Source: Candidatus Tectimicrobiota bacterium
GTDB taxonomy: Bacteria; JACPUC01
Length of the DNA stretch: 58,844 nucleotides
Direction: 5' to 3'
Assembly (NCBI GenBank): GCA_016192455.1
Contig: JACPUC010000014.1
Coordinates: 62,001-120,844, forward strand
The position numbers and the translations under genes are program-made. This document shows, piece by piece, positions 22,167 to 53,921 of this stretch; positions within the stretch are counted from its first letter, which is position 1; every line of letters starts with the position of its first letter. The notes under the pieces are model-generated. The model had not been told where the DNA came from. It worked only from the letters and a program-made list of their open reading frames with translations, and did not search any database.

Positions 22167-23438
22167 TCAGCCAGGCGCGTCGTCGCGTTCCGGCACGCCC
22201 TGGACCAGGATCAGGCCGGCGACAAAGAAGGCCAGGACGCTGAGGATCGCCAGGCGCTGGCTCCCTGTCCAGGAGGAGACGAGACCGAAGACGAGCGGTC
22301 CGACAGCCGCCGAGAGTCTCCCGCTCACCCCATAGAAGCCGAAGAATTCCGCGCCTTGCGGTGCGGGAAGAAGGGAGGCCATCATGGCGCGGCTGGTCGA
22401 CTGGCTTGAACCTATGGCCAGACCGGCCAGGAGGCCCACCACCGAGAAGAGGGCGCGCGAACGCGCCGCAAACGCTCCCAGAATCACCACCACCCAGAGC
22501 ACGAGGGTGAGCGTGAGGGTGCGCTTGCTGCCCAGCCAATCACCCACCCAGCCGAAGAGGATAGCGCCAACGATGCCGCTCGTCTGCACGGAGAGATAGA
22601 AGAGGATAAGCTGGTCCATGCTCATGCCCAGGGTGTGGCTGGCGTAGATGCTGCTGAAGTAAATGACCGTGGTGATCCCCTCGTTGTAGCAGCAGTAGGC
22701 AACGAGGAAGCGGGCGGCGCGGCGGTGGCGGCGCACCTCGCGCAGGGTCTGGCGCCAACGGCGGTAGCCGACCTTGAAGGCGCGAAACAGCGGCAGGGGG
22801 TTCGCATCGACGCGCTCGCGACGCTCCCGTAGCCAGAGCGCCGCTGGCAAGGTGAAGAGGGCGAAGAAGAGGGCGGTCAGGAAGAAGCTCAGGCGCACAT
22901 TGGCCAGGTTTTCAGGGGCAAGGCCGCCGGCCAGGAGGGGCCGAGCGAGAAGGATCACACCCACCGCGCCGGCATATCCGAGGGCCCATCCATAGCCGGA
23001 AAGCGTATGCAGGAGGTGCGGCGGAGCGATCTGCGGCAGGAACGCATTGTAGAAGACGCTGCCCATCTCGAAGGCGATATTCGCGCTGATAAAGAGGACC
23101 ATGCCCGCAAACACCATGCCCGGACCGATGCGGGCGAGCAAGGCCGTGCCGGCGATGCAGAGCGCCGAGAACGCCAGGAGGCCCCGCTTGCGCGCCGCGG
23201 CGGCGTCGCTCCAGGCTCCCAGGAGCGGCGCCAGGCAGGCCACCAGCAGCATGGAGATGGCGCCGTTCACCCCCCAGAGGAGATCGCCGAAGTTCGTCGC
23301 TCCCCCCACCACGATCTGGCGGAAGTAGACGGCGTAGACGAAGGTGACGATGATGACGGAGAAGGAGGTGTTAGCGAAGTCGTAGAGCATCCAGGCCCAC
23401 TGCTCAGCACTCAGGCGGAAGATCAGCCAGCGGCGCAT
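22167..23438 (-). CDS. MFS transporter (Atg22/UMF1-like)
   Basis: WAWMLYDFANTSF, FYNAFLP, SGYGWALGY, SRAMM and EFFGFY motifs. Confidence 0.9.
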   Translation of the reverse strand: MRRWLIFRLSAEQWAWMLYDFANTSFSVIIVTFVYAVYFRQIVVGGATNFGDLLWGVNGAISMLLVACLAPLLGAWSDAAAARKRGLLAFSALCIAGTALLARIGPGMVFAGMVLFISANIAFEMGSVFYNAFLPQIAPPHLLHTLSGYGWALGYAGAVGVILLARPLLAGGLAPENLANVRLSFFLTALFFALFTLPAALWLRERRERVDANPLPLFRAFKVGYRRWRQTLREVRRHRRAARFLVAYCCYNEGITTVIYFSSIYASHTLGMSMDQLILFYLSVQTSGIVGAILFGWVGDWLGSKRTLTLTLVLWVVVILGAFAARSRALFSVVGLLAGLAIGSSQSTSRAMMASLLPAPQGAEFFGFYGVSGRLSAAVGPLVFGLVSSWTGSQRLAILSVLAFFVAGLILVQGVPERDDAPG

Positions 23439-23668
23439 GGACCAGCCCCCGGACGATCACCCGCTCTGCCAGCCGGGGTTGCCGAGGCGGGCAGCGGCGT
23501 TGGCAAGGAGGCGCACGACACGGCAGGGTACGAAGCTGGAGGGACGAGTACTGGGGAGCCTGCGGCGTTGCGGCGAGGGCGGCTCCACCCCGCCATGAGG
23601 AACTCCGCCGGCGAATCGATCGGGGGGAGAGGCTCGAGCCTTACTGGGAACGCAAGGATCGCTCCCGG

Positions 23669-24433
23669 CTACTCCTCCTCGCCGAGGTAGGCTTCGATGA
23701 CCTGGCGATTCTCGCGAATCTCGCTCGGCTTCCCCTCGGCGATCTTCTCGCCGAAGTTCAGCACGGTGACGATATCGGAGATTTCCATCACCAGGCTCAT
23801 GTGGTGCTCAATGAGGACGACGGTGATGCCGCGGTCGCAGACCTCTTTGATGTGGCGGTCGAGGTCGATGATCTCGTTCTGGTTCATGCCGGCGGCGGGC
23901 TCATCCAGGAGGAGGAGCTTCGGCTTCGTCGCCAGGGCCCGCGCGATCTCAAGCCGCCGCTGCTGCCCGTAGGGCAAGGCGGAGGCTCGCAGGTGCAGTT
24001 TTTCCGCCAGCTCCATGAACTCGAGGAGCTCGAGGGCCGCCTCGCGGGTAGCGCGCTCCTCGGCGAGCTCGCAGAAGGGGGGCCGCAAGAAGCTCTTCAG
24101 GATGCCGGCATTGGTGCGGCAATGGCGCCCCAGCATGACGTTCTCCAGAACCGTCATCGAGCCGAAGAGGCGGATATTCTGGAACGTCCGCCCAATGCCG
24201 AGCTCCGTGCGCTTGTGCGGTTTCATGCCGTTGAGCACATGGCCTTCAAACTTGATCGTGCCGCCTTCGTTGTCCAGCATGCCGGTGACGCAGTTGAAGA
24301 GGGTGGTCTTGCCGGCGCCGTTCGGCCCAATCACGGCATGGATTCTCCTCTCCTCGACCGCGAAGGAAACCCGGTAGAGCGCATTGAATCCACCGAAGGA
24401 TTTGGTAACCTCGTTGATCTCCAACAGGGCCAT
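23669..24433 (-). CDS. livG: LIV-type ABC transporter ATP-binding protein (LivG-like)
   Basis: GPNGAGKTT, RTFQNIRLF, LPYGQQRRLEIARAL, LLLDEPAAG and EHHM. Confidence 0.93.
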   Translation of the reverse strand: MALLEINEVTKSFGGFNALYRVSFAVEERRIHAVIGPNGAGKTTLFNCVTGMLDNEGGTIKFEGHVLNGMKPHKRTELGIGRTFQNIRLFGSMTVLENVMLGRHCRTNAGILKSFLRPPFCELAEERATREAALELLEFMELAEKLHLRASALPYGQQRRLEIARALATKPKLLLLDEPAAGMNQNEIIDLDRHIKEVCDRGITVVLIEHHMSLVMEISDIVTVLNFGEKIAEGKPSEIRENRQVIEAYLGEEE

Positions 24434-24465
24434 ACTCGCCTTTCACTCCCCACAGGCTGGGGCAC

Positions 24466-25179
24466 CTAAGCCTTCCGGCCCCCCAGGTATGCCTCTTGCA
24501 CTTCCGAGTTTCCCAGTAGGGCCTCGCAACTATCTTCCAGGATGATGTTCCCGGTGACGATGACGTACCCGCGGTCCGAGACCTGCAGGGCCTTGCGGGC
24601 GTTCTGCTCGACGAGCAGGATCGTCCTCCCCTCCTTCTTCATCTCCGCGATGATGCGGAAGATCTCGCTGACGATGAGGGGGGCCAGTCCCAGGGAGGGC
24701 TCATCCATCATGATGAGGCGGGGCTTCGCCATGAGGCCGCGCGCAATGGCGAGCATCTGCTGCTCGCCGCCGCTGAGGCTCCCCGCCAGTTGTTGCTTGC
24801 GCTGGTCAAGAATGGGGAAGCGCTCGAAGATGCGCTGCAGGTCCTCACGGTACTCCGTATCGCGCGGTCGCAGGTAGCCCCCCATCTCGAGGTTCTCGAG
24901 CACGGTGAGCCGTTTCAGGATCGCACGCCCTTCCTGAACCTGGACGATCCCCTGGCGCACGATCTCGTGCGGCTTCATGCGATTGAGGTGATGACCATCG
25001 AAGACAATGTCTCCCCCCCTGGGACGCATCACCCCCGAGATCGTCTTTAGCAACGTCGATTTTCCGGCTCCGTTGGAGCCAATCAGGGTGACGGTCTCAC
25101 CCTCTCGCACCTCAAGCGAGACGCCTTTGAGGGCCAGGATTTCACCGTAGGCTGCGTAGAGGTTGGATACCTTCAGCAT
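24466..25179 (-). CDS. livF: LIV-type ABC transporter ATP-binding protein (LivF-like)
   Basis: GSNGAGKST, LSGGEQQMLAIARGL, DEPSLGLAP and VEQNA. Confidence 0.93.
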   Translation of the reverse strand: MLKVSNLYAAYGEILALKGVSLEVREGETVTLIGSNGAGKSTLLKTISGVMRPRGGDIVFDGHHLNRMKPHEIVRQGIVQVQEGRAILKRLTVLENLEMGGYLRPRDTEYREDLQRIFERFPILDQRKQQLAGSLSGGEQQMLAIARGLMAKPRLIMMDEPSLGLAPLIVSEIFRIIAEMKKEGRTILLVEQNARKALQVSDRGYVIVTGNIILEDSCEALLGNSEVQEAYLGGRKA

Positions 25180-25416
25180 ACGTTCACTTTCCTAAAACGA
25201 GAGGAGCGCCAACGAGCCGCCGCCCCATCGCGGGGAGATCCTTCCTGCAGAGGTGGCCGCTGCAACGCTGGCCTGAACGTGCGGCGGGGCTTCGTCCGTT
25301 CCCGCGTCTCTCTACCACACCCTGATGCCCATGCAGAGCGCAGGGTCCTGCCGCCAGCCCCCAGCGCCAGCCTCCACATCCGGCATCCGCCTGCGGCGCC
25401 CCCGCGCCGCCTCTCC

Positions 25417-26400
25417 CTAGGCTTCCACCCTTGGTTTCCAGAGGTTCGCCAAGGTGCTCCGCCAGTAGCGCAGGCTCATCATCTCCTTGCTGATCAAGCC
25501 GGCAGGCCGCAGAATCATCATGACGATGAGAAGCCCGCCGAAGATGATGATGCGCCAATCCTGAATAATCCGCAGCCACTCCGGCAGAAATGTCAGGTAG
25601 AAACCTCCATAGATCGGTCCCGCATAGATTTCATAGCCGCCGAGCAGCGTGAAGATGAGGATCTCGATGGATCGGAAGACGCCGAAGTTTGTCGAGTCGA
25701 TGTAGAGCGCATAGTGCGCGTAAAGCCCGCCGCTGATGCCGGCGAGGAAAGCGCCAATGGCGAAGGCGACCACCTTGTGGCGGGTGAGGTCCACCCCCAT
25801 CACCTCCGCGGCGTCCTGGTCCTCTTTCATGGACTCAAACGCCCGCCCCATGCGTGATTTCGTCACGCGCACGAAAAAAAGCACCACGAGGACCAGGGCG
25901 ACGTAGACGTTCCAAATGGTGGTGAGAGGTGGAATGCCGCCGAGTCCGCTCGCCCCCCCGGTATACTCGAAGTTGAGGAAGAAAACACGGATAATCTCAC
26001 TGATCGCCAGCGTCATGAGGAGGAGGTAGACACCCCGAATCCGCAGCGCCGGAAAGGCGGTCAACACGCCGACGATGGCGGCGAGGATACCCCCCGCCAG
26101 CAGGGCGATGAAAAAGGTGAGGTCGAGGGGGCCGACGGTGAAGTGAAATTTCCACAGCGTCGTGATGCTTGCCGACATGTAGGCGCCCACACCCATGAAG
26201 CCTGCCTGCGCCAGGGAGAGCAGCCCCGCCGAGAATGGCAAGTAGAAGCTCAGCGAGACGATGATATTGATGGCGGCGAAGATGAGAATCGACTCGATGT
26301 AGGCATCCGTCCGAAAGAACAAGTTGGCGATCAGGTAGTAGGCGCCGAAGACCACGGTCACGGCGATGAACAGCGACAGCATTCGCATTGACGTACTCAT
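25417..26400 (-). CDS. livM: LIV-type ABC transporter permease (LivM-like)
   Basis: GLLSLAQAGFMGVGAY, LRIRGVYL, TGGASGLGGI and SRMGRAF. Confidence 0.9.
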   Translation of the reverse strand: MSTSMRMLSLFIAVTVVFGAYYLIANLFFRTDAYIESILIFAAINIIVSLSFYLPFSAGLLSLAQAGFMGVGAYMSASITTLWKFHFTVGPLDLTFFIALLAGGILAAIVGVLTAFPALRIRGVYLLLMTLAISEIIRVFFLNFEYTGGASGLGGIPPLTTIWNVYVALVLVVLFFVRVTKSRMGRAFESMKEDQDAAEVMGVDLTRHKVVAFAIGAFLAGISGGLYAHYALYIDSTNFGVFRSIEILIFTLLGGYEIYAGPIYGGFYLTFLPEWLRIIQDWRIIIFGGLLIVMMILRPAGLISKEMMSLRYWRSTLANLWKPRVEA

Positions 26401-26564
26401 CCCTTACCTCTTCCACAGCGCCGGCCTGCTGCCGCGCGGTCAACCCTCCTGATCTGCTCCACCCACGCTCCGCTCTACCTGCGCCGGCGGGGGAAAACCG
26501 GCCCTGCCCTCGCCCCAACCCCTCCCACGGCCCTCGTCCACAGAGCAGGCGGCGCCTTAGCGCC

Positions 26565-27434
26565 TTAGTCGCCGTGGAGCTTGGCGCCGAACAAGCCACT
26601 TGGACGAAAGATCAGGATCATCACCATAACGCCGAAGGCGAAGGCATCGCGGTACGAAGAGGCGAGGTAGGCGACGCTGAGCACCTCCACGATGCCGAGG
26701 ATCAACCCGCCTACCATGGCGCCGGTGATATTGCCCAAGCCGCCGAGGAGCATGATGGCGAAGCTCTTCAGGGCCATCTCCACGCCCATGAAGGGGGAGA
26801 TAGCATTGAACGCCAGCCCCACGAGCACGCCCGCGGCTCCCGCCAATGCGGACGCCACGCCGAAGGTCAGGATGACCACGCCATTGATGTTCACCCCCAG
26901 CAGGCTGGCCGTCCGCCCGCTCTCGGCGGCGGCGCGCATGGCCGTGCCGAGGCGGGTGCGGTTGACGAAGAGGTGCAGCACCAACATCAGGAAGAGCGAG
27001 GTCGCGAGGATGAGCATCTGCACCGAGGTGACCGTGACGTTCCCAATGGGGTAGTTGACGATCTTGATGGTCTCGGGGAAGCCGACCTGCTCGCCCCCGA
27101 AGATCTTCGTGGCCGCGTCCTGCAGGATGATGGTGACGCCGACGGTGCTGAGGAGGGGGGCGAGGTGGAACTCTTTGCTGATGGGCCGCACCGCCACGCG
27201 CTCGACCAGGATGCCGAGGATAGCGGTGATCACCATGCTGCCGAACAGCGCCACGTAAACGTTCACCTTGAAGAGGAGCACAAGGTAGAGCCCGAAGAAC
27301 GCTCCCATCATGAAGACTTCGCCGTGCGCGAAGTGCAGCAGGCTAAGGACGCCGAAGATCAGGGTGTAGCCGATGGCGATGAGGGAGTACGCGCTCCCCA
27401 GCATCAGGCCGTTAATCATCTGTTGCAGGAACAT
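26565..27434 (-). CDS. livH: LIV-type ABC transporter permease (LivH-like)
   Basis: QQMINGLMLGSAYSLIAIGYTLIFG..FAHGE, TRLGTAMRA and LGGLG. Confidence 0.92.
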   Translation of the reverse strand: MFLQQMINGLMLGSAYSLIAIGYTLIFGVLSLLHFAHGEVFMMGAFFGLYLVLLFKVNVYVALFGSMVITAILGILVERVAVRPISKEFHLAPLLSTVGVTIILQDAATKIFGGEQVGFPETIKIVNYPIGNVTVTSVQMLILATSLFLMLVLHLFVNRTRLGTAMRAAAESGRTASLLGVNINGVVILTFGVASALAGAAGVLVGLAFNAISPFMGVEMALKSFAIMLLGGLGNITGAMVGGLILGIVEVLSVAYLASSYRDAFAFGVMVMILIFRPSGLFGAKLHGD

Positions 27435-27518: not shown

Positions 27519-29084
27519 TTATGCGGAACTGAGCTGACGCAGCTTGTAGCGTTGGATCTTCCCCGTCGCCGTCTTCGGCAGCTCCGGCACAAACTCGTAC
27601 CAGCGCGGATACTTGTAGTGCGCCAGACGGGCGCGGATGTGCTCGGTGTACGCCTGCTCCAGCGTCGGGCCGGGCTGCACGCCCTCTTTCAGAACAATGA
27701 AGGCCTTCGGCTTGATGAGGTTCGCATCATCCTCCTCCCCGATGACCGCGCACTCCAACACGGAGGGATGCTCCATGAGGCAGTTCTCGATCTCAATCGG
27801 TGAGACCCAGATGCCTCCCACCTTCAGCATGTCATCGGAACGCCCACAGTAAACGTAGTAGTCCTCCTCGTCGATGTAGTACTTGTCGCCGGTGATCACC
27901 CACTCGCCGATCATGGTGGTCTTCGTCTTCTGGTGCTTGTTCCAGTAGTACGGCGCCGTGCTGTCGCCACTGACCCAGAGGTTGCCGACCTCTCCCTTGG
28001 GCACGTCGTTGCCTTGGTCATCCGCCACCCGCGCCTCATAGCCGGGGATGATCTTGCCGCTCGTGCCGGCCTTGGCGCTCCCTAGCTTGTTGGAGATGAA
28101 GAGGTGGATGACCTCGGTGGAGCCGATGCCATCGATGAGCTCGTGGCCGAAGCGCTCCTTCCACTGCCGGAACAGCTCCGGCGGCAAGGATTCCCCCGCC
28201 GAGAAGAGGATGCGCAGCGAGCTCAGGTCGTACTTCTCGGCACCCTTCACCTGCAACATCTGCCCGTACATCGTCGGCACGTTGAAGAGGACGGTGGGCT
28301 TGAATTTGTCGATGATTTTGAACATATCTTCAGGAAGCGGGCGAGCCGGCCAGAGGATCGACGACGCCCCGACGCTGAAGGGGAAGTAGAGCGAGTTGCC
28401 CAGTCCGTAGGCGAAGAAGAGCTTGGCAACCGAGAAGACGAGATCGCTCTCCTTCGTCTCCACGATGTACTTCCCGAAGGTGTTGTAAGAGTGGTACATG
28501 TCGTGCTGCAGGTGGACGACGCCCTTGGGGAAGCCGGTGCTCCCCGAGCTGTACTGCCAGAGGGCCATGTCGTCACGGTGCGTCGGGGCCGCCTCGAGCG
28601 ACTCCGACTCCGGCTCGACGAGCTTCTCGTAGGAATGATACTTGCCCGTTGTGTCGCCGATGACGATGACGTGCTTCAGGAAGGGGCAGTTGGCGAGGAC
28701 CGGCTCCACTTCCGGCAGGAGCTGCTGGTCGATGATGAGGGCCATGGCGCGGCTGTCGTTGAGAAAGTACTGGTAATCCCGCGAGCGCATGATGGTGTTC
28801 GTCGGGATCGGCACGGCGCCGATCTTGATCGCCCCCAGAAAGCTGGCGATGAACTCGGGGCAATCGAGGACGATCATGAGGACGCGGTTCTCCATCTCGA
28901 TACCAAGATGGCGCAGCGCGTTCCCCGTCTTGTTGATCATCACCTGGAGCTGGCGATAGGTGAAGGTCCCGCCCTGATAGTGGATGGCGACCTTCTCGCC
29001 CCGCCCTTGCGCGACGTTGCCATCAACCAAGGGGACGGCGGCGTTGAACTGTTCCGGGAGTTCCAAGGACGAATGGGTATCCAT
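27519..29084 (-). CDS. Benzoate-CoA ligase family acyl-CoA synthetase
   Basis: YSSGSTGFPKGVVH, AKLFFAYGLGN, DGIGSTE, GRSDDMLKVGG and LPKTATGKIQR. Confidence 0.92.
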   Translation of the reverse strand: MDTHSSLELPEQFNAAVPLVDGNVAQGRGEKVAIHYQGGTFTYRQLQVMINKTGNALRHLGIEMENRVLMIVLDCPEFIASFLGAIKIGAVPIPTNTIMRSRDYQYFLNDSRAMALIIDQQLLPEVEPVLANCPFLKHVIVIGDTTGKYHSYEKLVEPESESLEAAPTHRDDMALWQYSSGSTGFPKGVVHLQHDMYHSYNTFGKYIVETKESDLVFSVAKLFFAYGLGNSLYFPFSVGASSILWPARPLPEDMFKIIDKFKPTVLFNVPTMYGQMLQVKGAEKYDLSSLRILFSAGESLPPELFRQWKERFGHELIDGIGSTEVIHLFISNKLGSAKAGTSGKIIPGYEARVADDQGNDVPKGEVGNLWVSGDSTAPYYWNKHQKTKTTMIGEWVITGDKYYIDEEDYYVYCGRSDDMLKVGGIWVSPIEIENCLMEHPSVLECAVIGEEDDANLIKPKAFIVLKEGVQPGPTLEQAYTEHIRARLAHYKYPRWYEFVPELPKTATGKIQRYKLRQLSSA

Positions 29085-29702
29085 GCTGAACCTCGTCCAC
29101 GTCCACCAACCGCTTCCGGGCGCGCCACAGGCTCCCGGCCCCCGTGCACCGGCTGGATTGTTGTTTCAGAGGGGCTGGACGGCATGCATCCGGGCACGGG
29201 TCTCCCGCTCGGCTCCCAGCCCATGACGGAACTTGGCACGCGGATTCAATGCTGCGCTCGGCGCCTTCCCCGCACTACGAAGGGAGAGAGCGACCTCGTG
29301 GTTAAACATCTTCACCTGGCCTAGGCAGCGCTTGGACAACCAACCTCGCCTAGCGTTGCGTGCAACTGGTACCACATCCCCCTGCTTTCGTCAAGGACCG
29401 CCGCGAGCTCGCCTCCTTCCGAGGCCGCGCACGCCACACTTTGCAAGACGTCCCCTCTTGACGGAGCAGAGATTCCCCCGCCTCCGTGACTTCGCTGGAC
29501 GCCGAGGTGAGGGAACGCCGGCGGCTTCTCAGCCTCGGCTTCGGCGCGCGGAACCCAGCGCCGCGTTGGGACCCCATGCCCGGGGGACGCGCAGCACGCA
29601 CCCCGACGCCCCTGCGCACCTGGCACGCGGGGCACTCTCCTCCCGCCGATGTCCAGTACAGGGCAAGGCAGGCGACGCAAAGGCCGGCAGCGCAGCGCGC
29701 AC

Positions 29703-31379
29703 CTAGAACCCCTGCGGCGGCTGGTAGGCGCCGAAGACGTCGCGCAGCACGGCGCAGATTTCGCCGAGCGTGGCGTACGCCTTGACGGCATCGATGAGCG
29801 GCGGCAGCAGGTTGGCGTCGCCCTGCGCGGCCGTCCGCAGCTCGGCAAGGATCCGCTCCACTTTGGCGGCGTCGCGCCGGGACTTCACCGCCTTCAGACG
29901 CTGCACCTGCTCCAGCTCGATGGCCGGATCGGTCTGGTGCAGCACGATCTCCGGCTCGTCGTCGATCTTGAACTGGTTGACGCCGACAATGACGCGCTCG
30001 CCCGTCTCCACCTCGCGCTGGTAGCGATAGGCGCTCTCGATGATCTCACTCTGGTAGTAGCCCTTCTCGATCGCCGCCACGGCGCCGCCCAGTTTGTCGA
30101 TCTTGGCGATGAGATCCCAGGCCCGTTCCTCGAGCTCGTTCGTGAGGGTCTCGACGTAGAAGGACCCCGCCAGCGGATCAATCGTATCGGCGATCCCCGA
30201 TTCATAGGCGACAATCTGCTGCGTGCGCATGGCGACGCGCACCGCCTCTTCCGTGGGCAGGGCCAGGGCCTCGTCGAACGAGCAGACGTGCAGCGCCTGG
30301 CAGCCGCCGAGCACCGCCGCCATGGTCTCGATGGTGCCGCGGATGACGTTGTTGAAGGGCTGGTGCGCGGTGAACGACGAGCCCGCCGTGCCGGTGAAAA
30401 CGCGGAAGGTGCAGGAGCGCGGGTCCTTGGCCCCGAAGCGCTCCTTCATGATCTTCGCCCACATGCGCCGCGCCGCCCGGAACTTGGCGATCTCCTCGAA
30501 GAAGTCGATCATCGTGTTGGGAAGCCAGGAGAGCCGCGGCCCGAAGCGGTCCACCTCGAGCCCCGCCTTGATCGCCGCCTCCACGTAAGCGATGCCGTCC
30601 GCCAGCATGAAGGCCAGCTCCTGCATGGCATTGCACCCCGCCTCGCGCAGGTGGTAGCCGCAGATGCTGATGGTGTTCCAGCGGGGCACCTGCTTGGAGC
30701 AGTACGCGAAGATGTCGGTGATGATGCGCATGCTCGGCTTCGGCGGGAAGATGTAGGTGCCGCGAGCCACGTACTCCTTCAGGATGTCGTTCTGGATCGT
30801 GCCCGTCAGCTTGGTGGGCGGAATGCCCTGCTGCTCGGCCACGGTCACGTACATGGCCAGCATCATCGCGGCGTGCGCGTTGCACGTCATGGAGGTGCTG
30901 ATCTTGTCGAGCGGGATGCCGTCGAAGAGCCGCTCCATGTCCTCCAGCGTGTCGATCGCCACGCCGACCTTGCCCACCTCCCCGCGGGCGATGGGGTGGT
31001 CGCTGTCGTAGCCAAGCTGCGTGGGCAGGTCGAAGGCCACGCTCAAGCCGGTGTTGCCGGTCTCCAGGAGGTACTTGTAGCGCTGGTTCGACTCATCCGC
31101 CGTACCGTAGCCGGCATATTGCCGGAAGGTCCAGAACTTGCCGCGGTAGGCGGTATGCTGCACGGCGCGCGTGAAGGGATACTGACCGGGCCAACCGATA
31201 TCCTGGCTATAGTCTCTCCCCGCCAGATCGAGCGGCGAGTAGGCGCGTTTGATCGGGATGCCCGAGGCCGTCTCGAAGCGCTTCTTGCGATCGGGGAAGC
31301 TGAGGGCTTGCTCCTCGGCTTCCTTCTCGTAGCGTTCCGCTTCCTGACGCAAGCCGGCAAGAAATCGCTCGTCAAACAT
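29703..31379 (-). CDS. B12-dependent acyl-CoA mutase, large (substrate-binding) subunit, methylmalonyl-CoA mutase family
   Basis: PGQYPFTR, RQYAG, GLSVAFDLPTQ, GTIQNDILKEY, GYHLREAG, EIAKFRAARR and DEALALP; no C-terminal DxHxxG B12-binding domain. Confidence 0.93.
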   Translation of the reverse strand: MFDERFLAGLRQEAERYEKEAEEQALSFPDRKKRFETASGIPIKRAYSPLDLAGRDYSQDIGWPGQYPFTRAVQHTAYRGKFWTFRQYAGYGTADESNQRYKYLLETGNTGLSVAFDLPTQLGYDSDHPIARGEVGKVGVAIDTLEDMERLFDGIPLDKISTSMTCNAHAAMMLAMYVTVAEQQGIPPTKLTGTIQNDILKEYVARGTYIFPPKPSMRIITDIFAYCSKQVPRWNTISICGYHLREAGCNAMQELAFMLADGIAYVEAAIKAGLEVDRFGPRLSWLPNTMIDFFEEIAKFRAARRMWAKIMKERFGAKDPRSCTFRVFTGTAGSSFTAHQPFNNVIRGTIETMAAVLGGCQALHVCSFDEALALPTEEAVRVAMRTQQIVAYESGIADTIDPLAGSFYVETLTNELEERAWDLIAKIDKLGGAVAAIEKGYYQSEIIESAYRYQREVETGERVIVGVNQFKIDDEPEIVLHQTDPAIELEQVQRLKAVKSRRDAAKVERILAELRTAAQGDANLLPPLIDAVKAYATLGEICAVLRDVFGAYQPPQGF

Positions 31380-31465: not shown

Positions 31466-31523
31466 ATTATAAACCCTTAAGTTATTTTTTTCCAGACTAC
31501 GCCGCCTGGGGACTCGAAGTCAA
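31466..31523 (-). promoter_or_regulatory. AT-rich promoter region upstream of the mutase
   Basis: TTGACT-N18-TAGTCT plus a downstream perfect TATAAT on the minus strand. Confidence 0.45.
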
Positions 31524-31605
31524 GGAGGAATGAACACCACCGCAAGGCCACGCGGTCACCAGCGGCCCTTCCCCCCGGGGCAGCCGGCGCGGGGCTGCCT
31601 GGGCG

Positions 31606-32313
31606 TTACCCCAAGATGATGCGGCCATCCGCCACCTTCACGCCGCGCTCGCTGACGAAGACGGGATTGAGGTCCATCTCCTTGATGTCAGGGAAGTCGT
31701 TGAGGAAGCGGGAGATATTCAGCAGCGTCTGCTGCAGGCTGGGGAGGTCGACCGGCGCCCGGCCGCGCGCTCCCGTGAGCAGTGGATAGCCCTTGATCTC
31801 CTCGATCATCTCGCGAGCATCTATGGGCTCGAGGGGGACCAGGCGGTAGGCCACATCTTTATAAATTTCCACAAAGATGCCGCCGATGCCGAACATCATC
31901 ACCTGGCCGAACTGCTCGTCGTTGATCGAGCCGACGATGATCTCTTCGCCCTTGCTCATCTCACCGACGAGGACGCCGCGCACCTCCGCCTTGGGATCGG
32001 CGGCGCGAACGTTCTTCAGGATGGCGTGGTACGCAGCCTCCATTTCCGCCGCGGAGGAGATGCCGATCACCACGCCGCCCGCGTCCGACTTGTGCACCAC
32101 CTGCGGCGAGACGATCTTCGCCACCACCGGGTAGCCGATCTCCGCCGCGGCCTGCTTCGCCTCCTCAACGCTTGTGCAGACGCGCTCCTTCGTCACCGGC
32201 ACGCCGTACGAGGCCATGATCTCCTTCACCTCAGGCTCCAGAACGTAGGAGCGTCCCTCCTTCTGCGCCCGCTTCAGGATGGCAGTGGTTGCCTCTTTGC
32301 TCATGCGTCCCAT
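31606..32313 (-). CDS. ADP-forming acyl-CoA synthetase, stand-alone beta (ATP-grasp) subunit
   Basis: IGYPVVAKIVSPQVVHKSDAGGV, FGIGGIFVE, LLTGARGR and EMDLNP. Confidence 0.9.
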   Translation of the reverse strand: MGRMSKEATTAILKRAQKEGRSYVLEPEVKEIMASYGVPVTKERVCTSVEEAKQAAAEIGYPVVAKIVSPQVVHKSDAGGVVIGISSAAEMEAAYHAILKNVRAADPKAEVRGVLVGEMSKGEEIIVGSINDEQFGQVMMFGIGGIFVEIYKDVAYRLVPLEPIDAREMIEEIKGYPLLTGARGRAPVDLPSLQQTLLNISRFLNDFPDIKEMDLNPVFVSERGVKVADGRIILG

Positions 32314-32434: not shown

Positions 32435-33196
32435 TCAGACCAGCGTCAGCAGCCCGCCATCGACGAAGAGGGTCTCGCCCGTGACGTAGGAGGCGTCGTC
32501 GGAGGCCAGGAAGAGAGCCACCCGCGCAATCTCCTCTGGCTTGCCCCAACGCTTCATCGGCACGCGCGCGCGCAAGGGGGTCATGACCGCCTCGTTGCGG
32601 CGCGTCTCCTCGGTCATGGGCGTCTCGATCAGGCCCGGGCCGATGGCATTGACGCGGATGCCATGGGGAGCCAGCTCCTGGGCCATGTAGCGCGTGAGCT
32701 GGATGACGCCGGCCTTCGAGGTGTGGTAGTACGGCCCCAGGTTCGGGTACACCACCTCGCCGGCCGACGAGGCAATGCTCACGATCCGCCCGTCCTTCTG
32801 CTTGATCATGTGCGGCGCCACCGCCTGGGAGAGGAACATGTAGCTCTTCAGGTTGATATCGTGGGTACGGTCCCAGAGGGCCTCCGTGCAGGTCAGGAAC
32901 GTCTCCTTGGGCGAGATGCCGGCGACGTTCATGAGGACGTGGATCTTCCCGAACCTGTCGATGGCCGCCTGCACCAGTTTGCCAAGCTGCGCAAACTGGG
33001 CCACATCCACCTCGTAGGGCAACGCCTTGCGGCCCATCTTCTCGATGTCGCGGCAGGTTGCCTGCACGCCGGCGGCGTTCTTGTCCGCGGCCACCACATC
33101 CGCGCCTTCCTGGGCCAGGTTCAGGGCGATCGCTTTCCCAATCCCCGAGGCGGCTCCCGTCACCAGCGCCACTCGATCGACAAACCGTTGCACCAT
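32435..33196 (-). CDS. Short-chain dehydrogenase/reductase
   Basis: TGAASGIG, NVAG, YHTSK (YxxxK) and IRVNAIGPG. Confidence 0.93.
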   Translation of the reverse strand: MVQRFVDRVALVTGAASGIGKAIALNLAQEGADVVAADKNAAGVQATCRDIEKMGRKALPYEVDVAQFAQLGKLVQAAIDRFGKIHVLMNVAGISPKETFLTCTEALWDRTHDINLKSYMFLSQAVAPHMIKQKDGRIVSIASSAGEVVYPNLGPYYHTSKAGVIQLTRYMAQELAPHGIRVNAIGPGLIETPMTEETRRNEAVMTPLRARVPMKRWGKPEEIARVALFLASDDASYVTGETLFVDGGLLTLV

Positions 33197-43491: not shown

Positions 43492-44487
43492 CTACGACGC
43501 GGACTTCGCCCCGCGGCTCACCTGCGCCTCGGCCTCCACCAGGTTCATGCCGAGGTGAAGGTTCATCTCCGTCAGGATGTCCTTGATCTCATTCAGCGAC
43601 TTGCGCCCGAAGTTGCGCGTCTTCAGCATCTCGGCTTCGCTCTTCTGCACGAGGTCGCGGATGGTCCTGAGGTTCGCGTTCTTCAAGCAGTTGTAAGAGC
43701 GCACGGAGAGCTCCAGCTCCTCGACGCTGCGGTCGAGGTTGGCCATCAGCTCCTGCTTGGCCCGATCGAGGACGGGAGCTTCCAGCTCGGGCTCTTCCTC
43801 GAAGTTGATGAAGATCTGCAGGTGGTCCTTCACCAGCTTGGCGGCCCTGGCCACCGCATCCTCGGGACTGATGCTGCCGTTTGTCCAGACCTGCAGGATG
43901 AGCTTGTCGTAGTCTGTCTCCTGGCCGACACGGGTGTTCTCCACCTTGAAGTTCACCCGCCGCACCGGCGAGAAGACGGAATCGATCGGGATAAGCTGCG
44001 CCGGCTGGCCGTCTTCGCGGTTCCGCTCCGCCGGCACGTAGCCGCGGCCGACCTTCGCCACGAGCTGGGCATGGAGCTTCCCCTCCTTGCTGAGCGTGGC
44101 GATATGTTGCTCGGGATTGAGGATCTCCACATCCGCGTCGTGCTCGATGGTGGCGCCGGTGATCACCTGCTCCCCTTCGCCATGAATCTCCAGGGTCTTC
44201 GGGTGATCAACATGCATCTTGAGGTTCAGCTCCTTGAGGTTCAAGAGGATATCGACAACATCCTCGGCCACGCCCGGGAGCGTGGAGAACTCATGGTAGA
44301 CCCCCTCAATCTGCACGTTGGCGATCGCCGCCCCGGGCAGGGAGGAGAGGAGGGCGCGGCGCAAGGCCGTCCCCAGCGTGGTGCCCCAGCCCCGCTCAAA
44401 GGGCTCGGCGACGAACATGCCATAGGTCTTCGTGAGGGTTGAGCGATCACACTCTAAGCGTTTCGGCCGTTGAAAGGGTCTACTCAT
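43492..44487 (-). CDS. rpoA: RNA polymerase alpha subunit
   Basis: [38 protein letters not shown] and NFGRKSL. Confidence 0.99.
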
Positions 44488-44584
44488 GCTGACCTGTGCC
44501 CTGCACGGCGGGGGGTTCGCTCCTGCCGCCTGCTGACGTTATGATTCGGCAACTCGCGCGCTCCAGCGCCGTTGCGAGCAGCGC

Positions 44585-45214
44585 CTACTTCGAGTACAGC
44601 TCGACGATGAGTTGCTCGTCGATGAGATCGCTGCACTCCTGACGCGTCGGAAGCTGCACGATCCGACTTTGCACCGCCCCACGATCGAGCTCCAGCCACT
44701 GCGGCACGCCGCGCCGCTCGGCTCGTTCCAGGGCCAGCCGGATGATGTCGAGGCCGCGGCTCTGCTGCCGCACGGCTACCACCTCCCCCTGTTTCACCTG
44801 GTAAGAGGGGATATCGACGGCTTTGCCGCCGACCTGAATATGCCGGTGGCGCACGAGCTGCCGCGCCTGCTGGAGGGAAGTGGCAAACCCCGAGCGGTGG
44901 ACGACGCTATCGAGGCGCCGCTCCAGCATGGTGAGGAAGACCTCACCCGTCACCCCGCGCTTGCGCTCGGCGCGCTGGAACGTCAGGCGGAACTGCTTCT
45001 CCAGCAACCCATACATGCGCTTCGCCTTCTGCTTGGCGCGCAGTTGGATGCCGTACGGGGTGATCTTCTGACGCCGCCGTTGACCATGCTGCCCTGGGAC
45101 GTAGTTGCGGCGCTCGATGGCACACTTGTCCGAGAAGCAGCGCTCTCCCTTCAGGAAGAGCTTCTCGCCTTCGCGCCGACACAACCGGCAAACTGGACCG
45201 ATGTACCTAGCCAC
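44585..45214 (-). CDS. rpsD: 30S ribosomal protein S4
   Basis: MARYIGPVCRLCRREG, LERRLD and IVELYSK. Confidence 0.99.
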   Translation of the reverse strand: MARYIGPVCRLCRREGEKLFLKGERCFSDKCAIERRNYVPGQHGQRRRQKITPYGIQLRAKQKAKRMYGLLEKQFRLTFQRAERKRGVTGEVFLTMLERRLDSVVHRSGFATSLQQARQLVRHRHIQVGGKAVDIPSYQVKQGEVVAVRQQSRGLDIIRLALERAERRGVPQWLELDRGAVQSRIVQLPTRQECSDLIDEQLIVELYSK

Positions 45215-45313
45215 GCTTCTTTGCTCTCCTCAACCGCTCTGCTGTTCGAATCAGGGCCTCCTCAGGACGCCCACGAACGGAACCAGGCGCGCCTGACGGG
45301 CGGGACGCCGGGC

Positions 45314-45706
45314 TTAAACGCGGCGCCGTTTCGGCGGCCGACAGCCATTGTGCGGGATGGGCGTGACGTCGCGGATCATCTCGATTTCGAGTCCCGCCGC
45401 CTGCATGGCGCGAATGGCCGCCTCACGGCCGGAACCCGGCCCCTTCACCAACACCTGCACCTTCCGCACCCCGAGCTCCATCGCCTTGCGGGCCGCCGCC
45501 TCACCGGCGATCTGGGCGGCGAAGGGGGTGCTTTTGCGGGAGCCCTTGAACCCTTGCGCGCCGGCCGAGGACCAGGCGACGACGTTGCCGGCCGCATCGG
45601 TGATGGTGACGATGGTGTTGTTGAAGGTGGAGAGCACATGCGTGATCCCCTCGCCGATCACCCTGCGCTCCTTGCGCCTGCCGCCCCGTTTCTTTCCGTC
45701 GGACAT
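45314..45706 (-). CDS. rpsK: 30S ribosomal protein S11
   Basis: [18 protein letters not shown] and [18 protein letters not shown]. Confidence 0.99.
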
Positions 45707-45731
45707 GGGTCGTTCTGCTCCTTACCTGACA

Positions 45732-46106
45732 CTATTTCTTCTTGCCGCGGGCGCCGACCGTCCGCCGCGGGCCTTTGCGCGTGCGCGAGTTGGTCCGCGT
45801 GCGCTGGCCGTGCACGGGGAGACCACGCCGGTGCCGCAGCCCGCAGTAGGTGCCGATGTCCATCAAGCGCTTGATGTTCATCGTCACTTCGCGCCGCAGG
45901 TCGCCCTCGACCGTGTAGCGCTGCTCGATGATCGTCCGGACCTTGGCGATCTCCTGGTCGGTGAAGTCCTTGATGCGCTTCTGTGGGTTAATGTCGGCTT
46001 CGGCAAGAATGCGCTTCGCGATCGAGCGGCCGACGCCGAAAATGTAGGTGAGCGCCGTTTCCGCCTGCTTGTCGTTGGGAACATCGACGCCAGCAATACG
46101 TGCCAC
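45732..46106 (-). CDS. rpsM: 30S ribosomal protein S13
   Basis: GTG start, ARIAGVD, EGDLRR and [16 protein letters not shown]. Confidence 0.98.
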
Positions 46107-46239
46107 CCTCGCACCTCCTCTTACGGCTGCGGCCCCGCGCCGCGCTGTCGGCGGGCCGACGCAGAGTGGCCTCACCGCCCCCTCGCATCGGCCCCACCAC
46201 GCACGGCGCCGGCCGCGCGCCCGAGCGCTCGCCGCGTCA

Positions 46240-46353
46240 CTACCCTTGCCGCTGCTTGTGGCGGGGATTCTCGCAGATCACCCGCACCACGCCCTTGCGG
46301 CGAATGACTTTACACTTGGCGCAGATCGGCTTCACCGAGGCTTGCACTTTCAT
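46240..46353 (-). CDS. rpmJ: 50S ribosomal protein L36 (zinc-binding type)
   Basis: [21 protein letters not shown]...HKQRQG. Confidence 0.98.
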
Positions 46354-46499
46354 GGTTCCCATCCTCCGCGGCGACGCGCCGGGACCTGTCGCCGCTGGGG
46401 GCATCCTCTGAAATCCCCGCTCTGGGGAACTCCCAGCAAGAGTCTTCCGGGAAGAGCCTCCCCCCAACAGCGTCCGGAGGAGGAAGCATCCCGGCCCCG

Positions 46500-46718
46500 C
46501 TACTTGTACCGGAACGTGATGCGTCCGCGGCTCAGATCATAGGGCGAGAGCTCGAGGCGCACCCTGTCCCCCGGCAGAATTCTGATGAAGTGCATGCGCA
46601 TCTTGCCGGAGATGTGCGCCAGAACCTTGTGACCATTATCGAGCCGGACACGGAACATCGCATTCGGCAACGGCTCCTCAATGGTCCCCTCGACTTCGAT
46701 GGCATCCTCTTTAGCCAT
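46500..46718 (-). CDS. infA: Translation initiation factor IF-1
   Basis: [18 protein letters not shown] and SPYDL.RGRI. Confidence 0.99.
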
Positions 46719-46758
46719 GGAGCCCCGTCCTCAGGCCGCTCTTCCTGCGCTCCGGTGC

Positions 46759-47526
46759 TTACGCTGATGCCGAGAACCCGTCGCGCAAGGTGAGGATCTC
46801 GGTCCCCTGATCGGTAATCGCCACGGTATGCTCAAAATGGGCCGAGCGCTTGCCATCGGCGGTCACGACCGTCCACTGATCGCTGAGGATGCGCACGTCG
46901 TGGGTGCCGGCGTTCACCATCGGCTCGAGGGCCAACACGAAACCCCGGCGCAGCCTGGGGCCGCTCCCCGCCGTACCGAAGTTCGGCACTTGCGGGTCCT
47001 CATGCAGCGCCTGCCCGATGCCGTGCCCCACGAAGACGCGCACCACGCCGTAGCCATGCCCCTCGGCATAGCTCTGGATCGCATGCGACACATCCCCCAG
47101 GTGGTTCCCCTCCTTCATCTGGGCGATGCCCATGAAAAGCGCTTTCTCGGTCACGTCCAGGAGGCGCCACGATTCCTGGGAGACCTCGCCCACCGGCACG
47201 GTGACGGCGGAGTCGCCGTAGTACCCGTCCACGCGGGCGCCCAGGTCAAGCCCAACAATGTCACCACTGCGCAGCTTGCGCTTCGACGGGATGCCGTGCA
47301 CCACCTCTTCGTTGATTGAGGTGCAGAGTGTGCAGGGGAAGCCGCGGTAGCCTTTGAAGGCGGGGATGCCGCCGCGCTCGCGGATGCAGGCTTCCGCCAT
47401 GGCGTCGAGCTCGCGGGTGGTGATGCCCTCCTCTACGTGGGCGATGAGGCAGTGCAAGGTTTCGGCAACGATGCGGTTCGGTCGCCGCATCTTCTCTATC
47501 TCTTCCGGCGTCTTGATGTGGATCAT
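46759..47526 (-). CDS. map: Methionine aminopeptidase type I
   Basis: SINEEVVHGIP, GYYGDSA, GHGIG..LHEDP, EPM and SAHFEHT; TGATG overlap with adk. Confidence 0.98.
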   Translation of the reverse strand: MIHIKTPEEIEKMRRPNRIVAETLHCLIAHVEEGITTRELDAMAEACIRERGGIPAFKGYRGFPCTLCTSINEEVVHGIPSKRKLRSGDIVGLDLGARVDGYYGDSAVTVPVGEVSQESWRLLDVTEKALFMGIAQMKEGNHLGDVSHAIQSYAEGHGYGVVRVFVGHGIGQALHEDPQVPNFGTAGSGPRLRRGFVLALEPMVNAGTHDVRILSDQWTVVTADGKRSAHFEHTVAITDQGTEILTLRDGFSASA

Positions 47527-48176
47527 CACGCACGCCTTTCCAGCACGCGACAAATCTCCTCAAAAATAGTGTCAATCTTGCCCATGCCGTGGATGGTGAG
47601 CAGGAGCCCCCCATGGTTGTAAAAAGCCGCCAGCGGGGCGGTCTGCTCCGTGTAGACCTTCAAGCGCTCCCTGATCGTGGCTTCCTGATCATCGGAGCGC
47701 TGGTAGAGTTCACCGCCACAGGCGTCGCACTTCCCCGCCACCTTGGAGGGGTTGAACACCGTGTGGAACATGGCGCCGCAAGCGCGGCAGGTGCGCCGAC
47801 CCGTGAGCCGGCGCAGCAGTTCCCCCTGCTCGACCTCGACGTTGATCACGGCGTCGAGCCGGCTGTTGAGCGCCTCCAGGGCGTCCCGCAACGCTTCGGC
47901 CTGGGCAAGCGTGCGCGGGAACCCATCGAGGATGTAGCCCTCTCGGCAATCGGCAACCCGCAGCCGTTCCTCGATGAGGGCGATGACCAGCGGATCGGGA
48001 ACGAGCTCGCCCTGATCCATGTATCCCTTGGCGCGCTTTCCCAGGCTGGTCCTCTCTCGCACCGCGGCGCGCAGGATGTCGCCGGTGGAGACCTGGGGAA
48101 TGCCGTACTTCTCCGCCAGAAGCTTCGCTTGGGTCCCCTTGCCGGAGCCTGGAGGGCCAAGAAAGATCAGCCGCAC
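47526..48176 (-). CDS. adk: Adenylate kinase (zinc-lid type)
   Basis: GPPGSGKGTQ, LDGFPRT and CRAC...CDAC. Confidence 0.99.
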   Translation of the reverse strand: MRLIFLGPPGSGKGTQAKLLAEKYGIPQVSTGDILRAAVRERTSLGKRAKGYMDQGELVPDPLVIALIEERLRVADCREGYILDGFPRTLAQAEALRDALEALNSRLDAVINVEVEQGELLRRLTGRRTCRACGAMFHTVFNPSKVAGKCDACGGELYQRSDDQEATIRERLKVYTEQTAPLAAFYNHGGLLLTIHGMGKIDTIFEEICRVLERRA

Positions 48177-48247
48177 AACGTCCTCCCGAACGTCACGGGT
48201 TGCTCGAGGGCGAACGCCGCCGGCGCGGCGCCGTCCGCCGCCCCGCC

Positions 48248-49558: not shown

Positions 49559-49560
49559 GC

Positions 49561-50001
49561 CTACGCTTCCTGAACTTGGCCGCCAGCGGCGCGAATCTTT
49601 TCCACCGCGGTCTTGCTGAAACGGTGGGCCTGCACGATGAGGGCCTTGCTGAGCTCTCCGTCACCGAGGATCTTGACCGCCAGACCTCTGCCGCGGATGA
49701 GCCGGCGTTCGCCGAGGAGCTCCGGGGTCACCGCGGTGTTCGCCGCAAAGACGTCGAGGTCGCCGACGTTCACGATCTCGTAGCGTTTCGTAAAGATGTT
49801 CGTAAACCCCCGCTTTGGCAAGCGCCGTTGCAGGGGCATCTGCCCACCCTCGAACCAGGGCGGCAGGGAGCCTCCCGAACGTGCTTTCTGCCCCTTGTGA
49901 CCGCGACCTGAGGTTTTGCCCAGGCCACTCCCCGGTCCGCGTCCGACCCGCTTGATGCTCTGCCGGGACCCCGGGGCGGGGCGCAGTTCATGCAGCTTCA
50001 T
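49561..50001 (-). CDS. rplO: 50S ribosomal protein L15
   Basis: [19 protein letters not shown] and [16 protein letters not shown]. Confidence 0.99.
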
Positions 50002-50216
50002 GGATGCCGCTCTCCTTGCTCAGCCGCGTTCTCGGTCACCAGGGTGCAGCGCACCAGGTGGGGGACCTTGTTGATCATGCCACGCACCGCCCGGCTGTCT
50101 TCCCGACGCACGGTGTGGTGCAGCCGGCGCAGCCCCAAGCCCCGCAGCACGAGCTTCAGCTTCGTTGGCGAGCCGATGCCGCTCTTCACGAGGGTGATGT
50201 CGATGTAGCGCGCCAT
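49998..50216 (-). CDS. rpmD: 50S ribosomal protein L30
   Basis: ITLVKS.IG, LRGLGL and RGMINKV.HLV; short C-terminal extension overlapping rplO. Confidence 0.95.
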
Positions 50217-50249
50217 GCTCCTCTCCCGTCCCGCCCAGGCGCTGCTGGG

Positions 50250-50747: not shown

Positions 50748-50807
50748 ACTCTGCTCCTCTGCCCGTCTCGTCTCGTGCGGGCGACCTCCTGCCACGGGGC
50801 GCCGCGG

Positions 50808-51170: not shown

Positions 51171-51256
51171 CGCCTCACCTCACTCCCGCTCCGCGCCCCG
51201 CGCGGCGCTGCCGTGGGCCGCCGGCGGCCTCTCCGGCATCGCCGGGGCGGTGCCTG

Positions 51257-51790: not shown

Positions 51791-51815
51791 GATGGTTCCT
51801 CCTTACCGCCGACGG

Positions 51816-53876: not shown

Positions 53877-53921
53877 CGTTCCCACTCTCTGGCTGGGTCG
53901 ATCTCGTGCGCGCCGGCGGGC

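Follow-up and report, generated by a model that had tools for sequence, protein, structure and literature searches.

An acyl-CoA mutase with an altered substrate barrel in a Candidatus Tectimicrobiota bacterium: a candidate for changed specificity

What does a B12-dependent acyl-CoA mutase act upon when it retains the first-shell substrate residues of methylmalonyl-CoA mutases (MCMs) but departs from them throughout the second shell? The question is raised by a 58,844-nt stretch of the genome of an uncultured groundwater bacterium, Candidatus Tectimicrobiota (contig JACPUC010000014.1, positions 62,001 to 120,844; hereafter, the window), on the minus strand of which the open reading frame (ORF) 29703..31379 encodes a 558-amino acid protein here labeled P0001. 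The reading that we favor, at a probability of roughly 0.45, is that P0001 is an active, neofunctionalised mutase for a carboxylated acyl-CoA more hydrophobic or somewhat bulkier than methylmalonyl-CoA; its catalysis, specificity and sharing of subunits are what we infer from the analyses that follow. A changed specificity as such is likely, judging from the residues of the barrel. The kinds of B12-dependent acyl-CoA mutases characterised so far are few, comprising MCM, isobutyryl-CoA mutase (ICM/IcmF), ethylmalonyl-CoA mutase (ECM), 2-hydroxyisobutyryl-CoA mutase (HCM/RCM) and pivalyl-CoA mutase (PCM), with hexylmalonyl- and benzylmalonyl-CoA mutases having been proposed in addition, and such enzymes are wanted for pathway engineering.

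29703..31379, minus strand: large (catalytic) subunit of an acyl-CoA mutase, 558 amino acids (P0001); ATG start, no internal stop codon, split type without a fused B12 domain

By family profile, fold and kept motifs, P0001 is the large subunit of an adenosylcobalamin-dependent acyl-CoA mutase, its activity being predicted on that basis. Profile searches bore out the assignment to the B12-dependent acyl-CoA mutases that had been made in an earlier note on this stretch: TIGR00641 matched residues 35-555 with 778.9 bits against a cut-off of 303.8, and PF01642 matched with 741.2 bits. The best solved relatives retrieved with HMMER were HcmA (4r3u_A, E 8.9e-165), human MMUT (2xij_A, E 6.9e-153) and Propionibacterium shermanii MutB (1req_A, E 1.4e-145). 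An AlphaFold2 model built from a 38-row alignment (mean pLDDT 88.8, pTM 0.91) and superposed with Foldseek displayed the (beta/alpha)8 barrel of the family, with query-normalised TM-scores (TMq) of 0.96 to 4r3u and of 0.88-0.93 to the chains of solved MCMs (P. shermanii MutB, 1REQ/4REQ; human MMUT, 2XIQ), which are 44-47% identical to P0001 in sequence. HcmAB, the HCM of Aquincola tertiaricarbonis (4R3U) with a homolog on a plasmid of Methylibium petroleiphilum PM1, resembles P0001 in consisting of a large subunit of about 560 residues and a separate small subunit. Closest in sequence, at 63-68% identity, are the large subunits of split-type (archaeal/Firmicutes-like) MCMs; the closest database relatives, 119 in number among 5.8 billion proteins, fall in this same range. 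The MCM equivalog model NF006944 scored P0001 at 661.9 bits, below its cut-off of 876, which is a weak test because the model describes a 721-residue fused form and P0001 is split. The GC content at third codon positions (GC3) of the gene is 0.91, like that of the adjoining genes.

Residues are numbered below as in published P. shermanii MutB (the index of chain 1req_A being the published number minus 1) unless said to be those of P0001, and equivalences were drawn from a HMMER alignment to 1req_A. P0001 keeps Y89, Q197, R207, Y243, H244, R283, S285 and E370. The first shell of MCMs (Y89, R207, H244, Y243 and Q197) is thus found complete; E370, the glutamate of the DEA motif, presumably binds the adenosyl ribose, and R283 and S285 are taken to be residues of the CoA channel. 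The second shell (S241, F286, F287, H328, Q330, S362, T365 and N366) is changed at every position. The substitutions relative to MutB are F286W, F287L, W288P (position 288 being F or W across MCMs), H328F, Q330G, T365V and N366C, to which S241C, S362A, I/M167C and P/A170H, all absent from the earlier note, are to be added. The codons concerned, numbered as in P0001 with MCM equivalents in brackets, are the following.

30873..30884, minus strand: C166 and H169 (MCM 167 and 170), immediately beyond beta3 of the barrel; I and P in canonical relatives
30660..30662, minus strand: C240 (MCM S241), where strand beta5 ends, two residues ahead of Y243-H244
30519..30527, minus strand: W285-L286-P287 (MCM F286-F287-W/F288), end of strand beta6
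30390..30398, minus strand: F328-T329-G330 (MCM H328-S-Q330), strand beta7
30282..30296, minus strand: A362-L-H-V365-C366 (MCM S362-L-H364-T365-N366), strand beta8 and its end

In the AlphaFold2 model, the changed positions lie at or just past the C-terminal ends of strands 161-165, 237-240, 283-286, 327-330 and 362-364, and the same face of the barrel meets the B12 subunit in the complex model described below (P0001 residues 206-208, 246-248, 334, 337-339 and 371-373). In human MUT, according to PMC11988910, which cites Froese et al., the equivalents of Y89, H244 and R207 (Tyr110, His265 and Arg228) contact the substrate, and the same source gives a strand Ala349-Thr353, which contains the equivalents of H328 and Q330. 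A literature search for roles of H328, Q330 and N366 by residue name returned nothing. The signatures of ICM (F/Q at 89/207) and HCM (I/D/Q at 89/116/207) are both excluded by the alignment, P0001 having Y, A and R; HCM carries I, D and Q where P0001 has Y89, A116 and R207, and keeps H328, Q330 and N366. The earlier note had argued against ICM and HCM from the retention of Y89, R207 and H244, and this argument holds. All motifs that it had read (FRQYAGY, GTIQND, KEYVAR, GYHLRE, DEA, RLSWLP, RVFTGTAG, QALHVCS and MTCNAH) are present in the translation, its equivalences at 287, 328, 330 and 366 (Leu, Phe, Gly and Cys) are reproduced by the alignment, and the remodelled pocket that it proposed is reflected in a second shell altered both strongly and specifically.

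The extent of this alteration is best appreciated against the 119 relatives, among which 237 alignment columns are at least 98% conserved. P0001 keeps 210 of these near-invariant columns and departs at 27; for relatives tested alike, the median number of departures is 0 and the highest is 5. Its non-conservative departures (P0001 numbering) fall at 166, 169, 240, 285-287, 327, 328, 330, 336, 339, 360, 362, 365 and 366, the others being of the E>D, I>L or V>I type, and columns 166, 169, 240, 285-287, 328, 330, 362, 365 and 366 are 100% conserved in the 119 proteins. None of the 119 carries any of the pocket changes of P0001, all reading FFF, H..Q and HTN, and the canonical FFF/HTN pattern was likewise found in 71 of 71 parsed named-genome loci (out of 80 taken), none of them being of the WIF/AVC type introduced below; the set of 40 relatives' genomes is akin to the source organism at the level of domain only. 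Measured against these alignments, the departure of the pocket is beyond chance.

Across the wider family, the picture is one of frequent change. In a set of 135 rows (50%-identity representatives, four close matches and two paralogs from the genome of P0001), Y89 and R207 occurred together with H328, Q330 and N366 in only 33 rows, and at least 16 listed combinations keep the Y/R pair with other residues at 328, 330 and 366. E370 was present in every pocket pattern printed from this set. Each of the states of P0001 is also seen in some of the remaining 134 rows (F328 in 10, G330 in 14, C366 in 12, W286 in 5, L287 in 11, C241 in 24, V365 in 18 and A362 in 9). Ten divergent clusters bear only generic names ("MCM N-terminal domain"), and uncharacterised mutases with rebuilt pockets are common in metagenomes. 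One metagenome protein of a distant clade, P0133 (554 amino acids, 48% identical to P0001), combines C241, WLP at 286-288, F328 and C366; it is encoded on a 4.2-kb contig. Recombination or gene conversion was considered as the origin of the pocket of P0001 and rejected: identity to the canonical protein P0029 was the highest in 25 of 26 forty-residue windows, the sole exception being window 341, where a paralog encoded on contig C31 of the same genome reached 0.65 against 0.62 for P0029. Conversion from the paralogs was discarded as well, since the gene and both of them are about 75% identical in DNA and share a single long word, in the GTIQND region. Because neither the sliding-window identities nor the DNA comparison gave any sign of recombination, the resemblance between the pockets of P0001 and P0133 is best read as convergent. 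That clades unrelated to one another have arrived at F328, G330, C366 and WLP marks out positions 286-288, 328, 330 and 366 as a probable hot spot of specificity beyond the textbook pair of Y89 and R207.

Where P0001 branches within the family was approached with several trees. FastTree, run on the 135 rows, grouped P0001 with canonical split-type sequences, five rows in all, at a local (SH-like) support of 97%. The terminal branch of P0001 measured 0.33 and those of the other members 0.16-0.19; in a more careful IQ-TREE run it measured 0.47 against a median of 0.15. Upon removal of the pocket columns, a quick IQ-TREE search yielded a polytomy in which the place of P0001 within the canonical split radiation was not resolved, while the careful tree (log-likelihood [lnL] -16306.76) joined P0001, with 92/91 support, to another canonical group on a long stem, a pairing that is not robust. 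By these trees, P0001 is a long-branched member of the radiation of canonical split-type MCMs. Clustering with verified MCMs that bear the same substitutions had been named in the earlier note as an outcome that would speak against a new mutase; P0001 does cluster with canonical MCM-type sequences, and none of these carries the substitutions.

A search with P0001 residues 276-375 returned 110 matches, 40 of which make up a subfamily with the pocket SVGAYH / RxSWIFNTH / RFHTQTGG / QSLA(V/S)CS, here called WIF/AVC. The group, whose name was chosen after a tree had been seen, is a clade there, comprising 37 rows at a local (SH-like) support of 100%. WIF/AVC proteins belong to the same radiation as P0001 and share W286, N289, T290, V365 and C366 with it; unlike P0001, they keep H328 and Q330 and have G241-A242, I287, F288 and A364, P0001 having G242 and H364. 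A tree in which P0001 was held with this subfamily, pocket columns again removed, was not rejected (approximately unbiased test, p-AU 0.73) and exceeded the quick free tree by 13 lnL units, yet the careful free tree was better still; the states common to the two may therefore be inherited or convergent. In five metagenome loci (L118-L122), the WIF/AVC mutase gene belongs to an operon with a 132-138-residue B12 subunit and a 394-residue family-III CoA-transferase (e.g. L121, 7962-11461), the CoA-transferase being found in 5/5 loci and the small subunit in between in 3/5. Upstream transporters of dicarboxylate type were seen in two of the five (TRAP DctPM in L119 and CitMHS_2 in L122). An operon of this type is absent from the window of P0001.

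We next turned to the rest of the genome, a 4.46-Mb assembly in 31 contigs that is 88% complete and in which P0001 lies on contig C10 (120,844 bp). A PF01642 profile search found three large-subunit genes, on C25, C31 and C10 (P0001). The C25 paralog is canonical (RLSFFF, RFHAQTAG, QSLHTNS) and lies beside sucC, sucD, ndk, biotin carboxylase and biotin carrier (BCCP) genes; because a canonical paralog is thus found in a succinate/propionate context, MCM function appears to be covered in this genome. The C31 paralog (C31:249234-250919, 561 amino acids) reads GQY for RQY, VLLQND for GTIQND, RFLTFTAG and QTLHACS, and is flanked by a family-III CoA-transferase, a thiolase and a D-2-hydroxyacid dehydrogenase, a neighbourhood that looks like a candidate catabolic module for a dicarboxylic acid.

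The genome holds 10 matches to PF02310, only one of which is a mutase-type small subunit (145 amino acids, 97.7 bits, on contig C5 at 23143-23580); three others (214-227 amino acids) are read, from their sequences, as methyltransferase-type corrinoid proteins. The only MeaB (311.5 bits) is encoded on C5 as well; the 2 kb that separate it from the small subunit hold genes for an SCP-x-type thiolase and a DUF35 protein. The cluster C5:20083-24410 thus comprises the small subunit, MeaB, the thiolase, the DUF35/ChsH2-type OB-fold protein and a PaaA/PaaC-like protein, the last adjoining the small subunit on the side away from the thiolase, with electron-transfer flavoprotein alpha/beta genes near. 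The earlier note had reported that no small subunit is encoded in the window, and this extends to the whole of contig C10, on which none of the 10 PF02310 matches falls; its suggestion that the small subunit and MeaB be sought elsewhere led to one of each, on C5. No linkage of any of the three large subunits to the C5 small subunit or MeaB was found. Since there is only one small subunit in the genome and no large subunit adjoins it, the three large subunits would seem to share it. When P0001 and the C5 small subunit were modelled as a complex, the score was 0.72, as compared to 0.00 for the best of three controls, and the runs agreed in at least 81% of contacts, with a partner pLDDT of at least 82. 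Of 80 solved complexes, 58 attain the mark applied to such scores, and so do 2 of 110 mismatched pairs; these counts are only roughly valid here as alignments of our own were used. Because a like complex, HcmAB (4r3u), has already been solved, the pass may reflect likeness and not binding.

Sequencing runs provided a view of the gene in related strains. In the Logan contigs of four runs from the study that is probably the source, 0.98-1.00 of the sampled words are present, so the sequence of P0001 is reproducible, although these runs are not independent of the assembly. Six runs from two other groundwater studies hold 0.21-0.27 of the words; no RNA run was found among the listed runs carrying the sequence. 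At 85% likeness, contigs from three of those six runs tile the gene at about 94-98% identity, among them one stretch of 799 nt with 22 differences and one of 221 nt over the WLP and C241 codons with 5. Among the in-gene differences listed, 37 in number, 25 leave the amino acid unchanged, the random expectation being 23.5%, and the pocket codons contain none of the 37; one synonymous difference, at 30399, lies in codon 327, adjoining F328. These figures are suggestive of purifying selection on the gene. Contigs of other organisms with the canonical FFF diverge at 30507. Contigs of 5053 and 5686 nt cease matching at 29690, 13 bp past the stop codon, and related contigs extend from the mutase gene across 31700 into the ATP-grasp gene that lies upstream of it, with indels in the spacer only. 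Because the contigs continue upstream and diverge downstream, the adjacency of the ATP-grasp and mutase genes is conserved among close strains, whereas the downstream gap and the ligase gene beyond it are not. Positions 29400-29476, uncovered in the runs, were excluded as evidence.

Taken together, these observations suggest the following course of events. P0001 would descend from canonical split-type MCMs and would still bind a free carboxylate and a thioester via Y89, R207, H244, Y243 and Q197, with the DEA glutamate binding the ribose. The polar residues H328, Q330 and N366 and neighbouring positions would have given way to hydrophobic or small ones (F, G, C, L, A, V and C). Because the carboxylate machinery is kept while polar barrel residues have become hydrophobic or small, the substrate is expected to be more hydrophobic or somewhat bulkier than methylmalonyl-CoA, and P0001 would rearrange a 2-substituted malonyl-CoA or a substituted succinyl-CoA. 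The canonical C25 paralog would take care of housekeeping MCM activity, and P0001 would borrow in trans the single small subunit and the single MeaB of C5. An active, neofunctionalised mutase fits the data in that the first shell, the fold and the modelled interface are intact, the changes are confined to one face, the same states recur elsewhere in the family, purifying selection seems to act on the gene and a canonical paralog is at hand. More specific, and on balance doubtful, is the full proposition that about a dozen barrel changes in an MCM scaffold have led to a carbon-skeleton rearrangement new to science, that of a hydrophobically substituted succinyl- or malonyl-CoA, with P0133 as a partial and independent parallel and with one small subunit and one MeaB serving three large subunits.

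There are precedents for MCM-family enzymes with larger substrates. ECM, reportedly described by Erb et al. in 2008, is said to act on a carboxylated substrate with a larger alkyl group. Plasmid matches from Streptomyces canus and Sphingobium were considered as an ECM reference and set aside, their loci not being ECM-type clusters, and neither the NCBIfam nor the PDB matches of P0001 included an entry for ECM or another alkyl- or aryl-malonyl-CoA mutase. The hexylmalonyl-CoA mutase MatB/ActD of matlystatin/actinonin biosynthesis offers a larger-alkyl precedent, and the small subunit of ActD is encoded elsewhere in the genome, away from the large-subunit gene as is the case for P0001, according to PMC5719088. 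Compared by description and not by pocket sequence, P0001 differs from ECM, MatB and ActD in that its context lacks crotonyl-CoA carboxylase/reductase (CCR), an epimerase and a biosynthetic cluster. An aryl-substrate precedent is IaaGH, the benzylmalonyl-CoA/phenylsuccinyl-CoA mutase of anaerobic indoleacetate degradation (PMC8360864), the comparison again being by description only: an aromatic-acid-type CoA ligase and an ABC transporter lie near P0001, and no iaa-type genes (family-III CoA-transferase, decarboxylating acyl-CoA dehydrogenase) were found in its neighbourhood.

P0001 also makes for a tractable case. Its scaffold is near that of well-behaved thermophilic MCMs and nearly all of the radical changes fall in four barrel strands; specificity should therefore be testable by swapping a few residues in either direction. 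If the fuller proposition of a new rearrangement were true, P0001, P0133 and the intermediate WIF/AVC subfamily would form a natural series from which to map the specificity-determining positions of B12 acyl-CoA mutases, and the sharing of one small subunit and one MeaB by three large subunits, if real, would bear on the organisation of cofactor loading. These prospects are tempered by the fact that rebuilt-pocket mutases are already frequent in metagenomes and that the neighbourhood of P0001 is uninformative. Around the mutase gene, the window contains the following features.

32435..33196, minus strand: short-chain dehydrogenase/reductase (SDR)-family oxidoreductase, 253 amino acids, upstream of the mutase
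31606..32313, minus strand: stand-alone ATP-grasp_5 protein, 235 amino acids (PF13549, 270.5 bits; best NCBIfam score 237 against a cut-off of 1300)
31466..31556, minus strand: terminator-like hairpin (31556-31539) following the ATP-grasp gene; promoter-like site (31494-31466), some 90 bp ahead of the mutase start codon
29085..29702, no strand: non-coding gap of 618 bp, the site where relatives usually carry the small-subunit gene
27519..29084, minus strand: benzoate-CoA ligase family protein, 521 amino acids (TIGR02262, 635.9 bits against a cut-off of 375.25)
23669..27434, minus strand: LivH/LivM/LivF/LivG-type ABC transporter (permeases 26565-27434 and 25417-26400; ATPases 24466-25179 and 23669-24433)

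The ATP-grasp_5 protein resembles the beta part of ADP-forming acyl-CoA synthetases. Four alpha-like Succ_CoA_lig frames of 473-596 amino acids, on contigs C30, C9, C1 and C15, are candidate partners for it, an arrangement reminiscent of an ADP-forming acyl-CoA synthetase that is split and has more than one alpha subunit encoded at unlinked sites. The sites between the ATP-grasp gene and the mutase gene are weak consensus matches (2 promoter-like sites against 0.5 expected, 4 terminator-like sites against 2.3 expected). No remnant of a B12 domain was detected among the stop-to-stop ORFs of the 618-bp gap, which matches only itself in the genome; Rfam returned 0 matches at the gathering score over the whole window, and hence no B12 riboswitch in the gap. 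The ligase and ABC transporter genes probably form a unit separate from the mutase. An ATG22-like major facilitator superfamily transporter at 22167-23438 on the minus strand (PF11700, 177.6 bits, a Pfam family named for vacuolar effluxers) ends the ligase/ABC row. Unlike the C25 paralog, P0001 has no propionate- or succinate-pathway context among its window neighbours (SDR, ATP-grasp, aryl-CoA ligase), and it differs from canonical split MCMs in lacking both such neighbours and an adjoining small subunit.

Several points weigh against P0001 being an active mutase of changed specificity. H328 and Q330, lost in P0001, are kept in every MCM-, ICM- and HCM-type row examined and in the solved HCM; because they are conserved across these types, their loss could impair catalysis and not retune it. 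The reading also leans on F287, H328, Q330 and N366 presumably bordering the cavity over the corrin in MCM; what the AlphaFold2 model shows is that their equivalents lie at the C-terminal ends of barrel strands. Where the loci of relatives have enough room, 126 of 147 have the start of a small-subunit ORF no more than 400 bp downstream of the large-subunit gene; P0001 has none there, and its gene may furthermore be a transcription unit of its own. Among 179 relatives' loci, the window neighbours were found beside mutases in very few (ATP-grasp in 1, SDR in 5, the aryl-CoA ligase family in 4, LivH in 1) and, because they so rarely accompany mutases, they say little of the function of P0001. The alkyl- or aryl-malonyl/succinyl-CoA substrate proposed in the earlier note consequently finds no support in the locus, the ligase and ABC genes lying past a strain-specific gap and the neighbours rarely recurring. 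Only 40 of the 249 strain differences were listed, and the conserved middle of the gene attracts many contigs from other organisms, such that the pattern of substitutions is suggestive and not complete. Lastly, no ortholog above 68% identity was found in the protein databases searched, and the age and conservation of the pocket therefore rest on fragmentary contigs.

A rival reading is that P0001 is still an MCM, a second isozyme in which the second-shell changes tune kinetics, cofactor handling or regulation. We consider this unlikely. It would account for the retention of all first-shell residues that contact methylmalonyl- or succinyl-CoA and for the position of P0001 within the canonical split MCMs, with MCM-annotated proteins 63-68% identical to it, and the adjoining ATP-grasp gene, resembling parts of ADP-forming acyl-CoA synthetases, would fit a general acid/CoA-ester metabolism. 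H328, Q330, N366, S241, S362, T365 and F286-288, however, are invariant in the 119 relatives and all altered in P0001, the canonical paralog already occupies the succinate/propionate context, and the NF006944 score falls short of its cut-off, with the reservation that the model represents the fused form.

Quite unlikely, in our estimation, is a catalytically impaired P0001, acting either as a structural or regulatory partner, as MutA does for MutB in heterodimeric MCMs, or representing a paralog in an early stage of decay. The loss of H328 and Q330, kept in all characterised classes compared, the long end branch in both trees and the lack of an adjoining small-subunit gene speak for this reading. 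A decaying or purely structural protein is less readily reconciled with the intact frame, the full-length alignment and the confident fold; nor does it sit well with the retention of 210 of 237 near-invariant columns and the conservative nature of changes outside the pocket, with the 25 synonymous differences among the 37 listed between strains and a GC3 of 0.91, or with a confidently modelled B12-subunit interface, even if likeness to HcmAB may account for the latter. MutA-type sequences are, moreover, far more diverged from P0001 (1e1c_B, E 5e-31, against 1e-145 for MutB). Least probable of all is that P0001 is a diverged offshoot of the WIF/AVC subfamily with the same role in a pathway of dicarboxylate uptake and CoA transfer. 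The five residues in common and the unrejected joint tree speak for it; against it stand the careful free search, the retention of H364 and G242 and the change of H328 and Q330, the missing operon and the naming of the group after the fact.

The scarcity of close orthologs, finally, has a plausible origin in the host. SecY encoded in the ribosomal-protein operon of the window shares no more than 76% identity with any protein in the database, and only two organism names, Nitrospinota and Entotheonellia, occur among its 119 listed matches; the lack of close P0001 orthologs is thus explained by a poorly sampled lineage. The operon itself, of ribosomal-protein/SecY/adenylate kinase type, occupies 43492-58701 on the minus strand, as read from the sizes of its ORFs, SecY alone having been searched.

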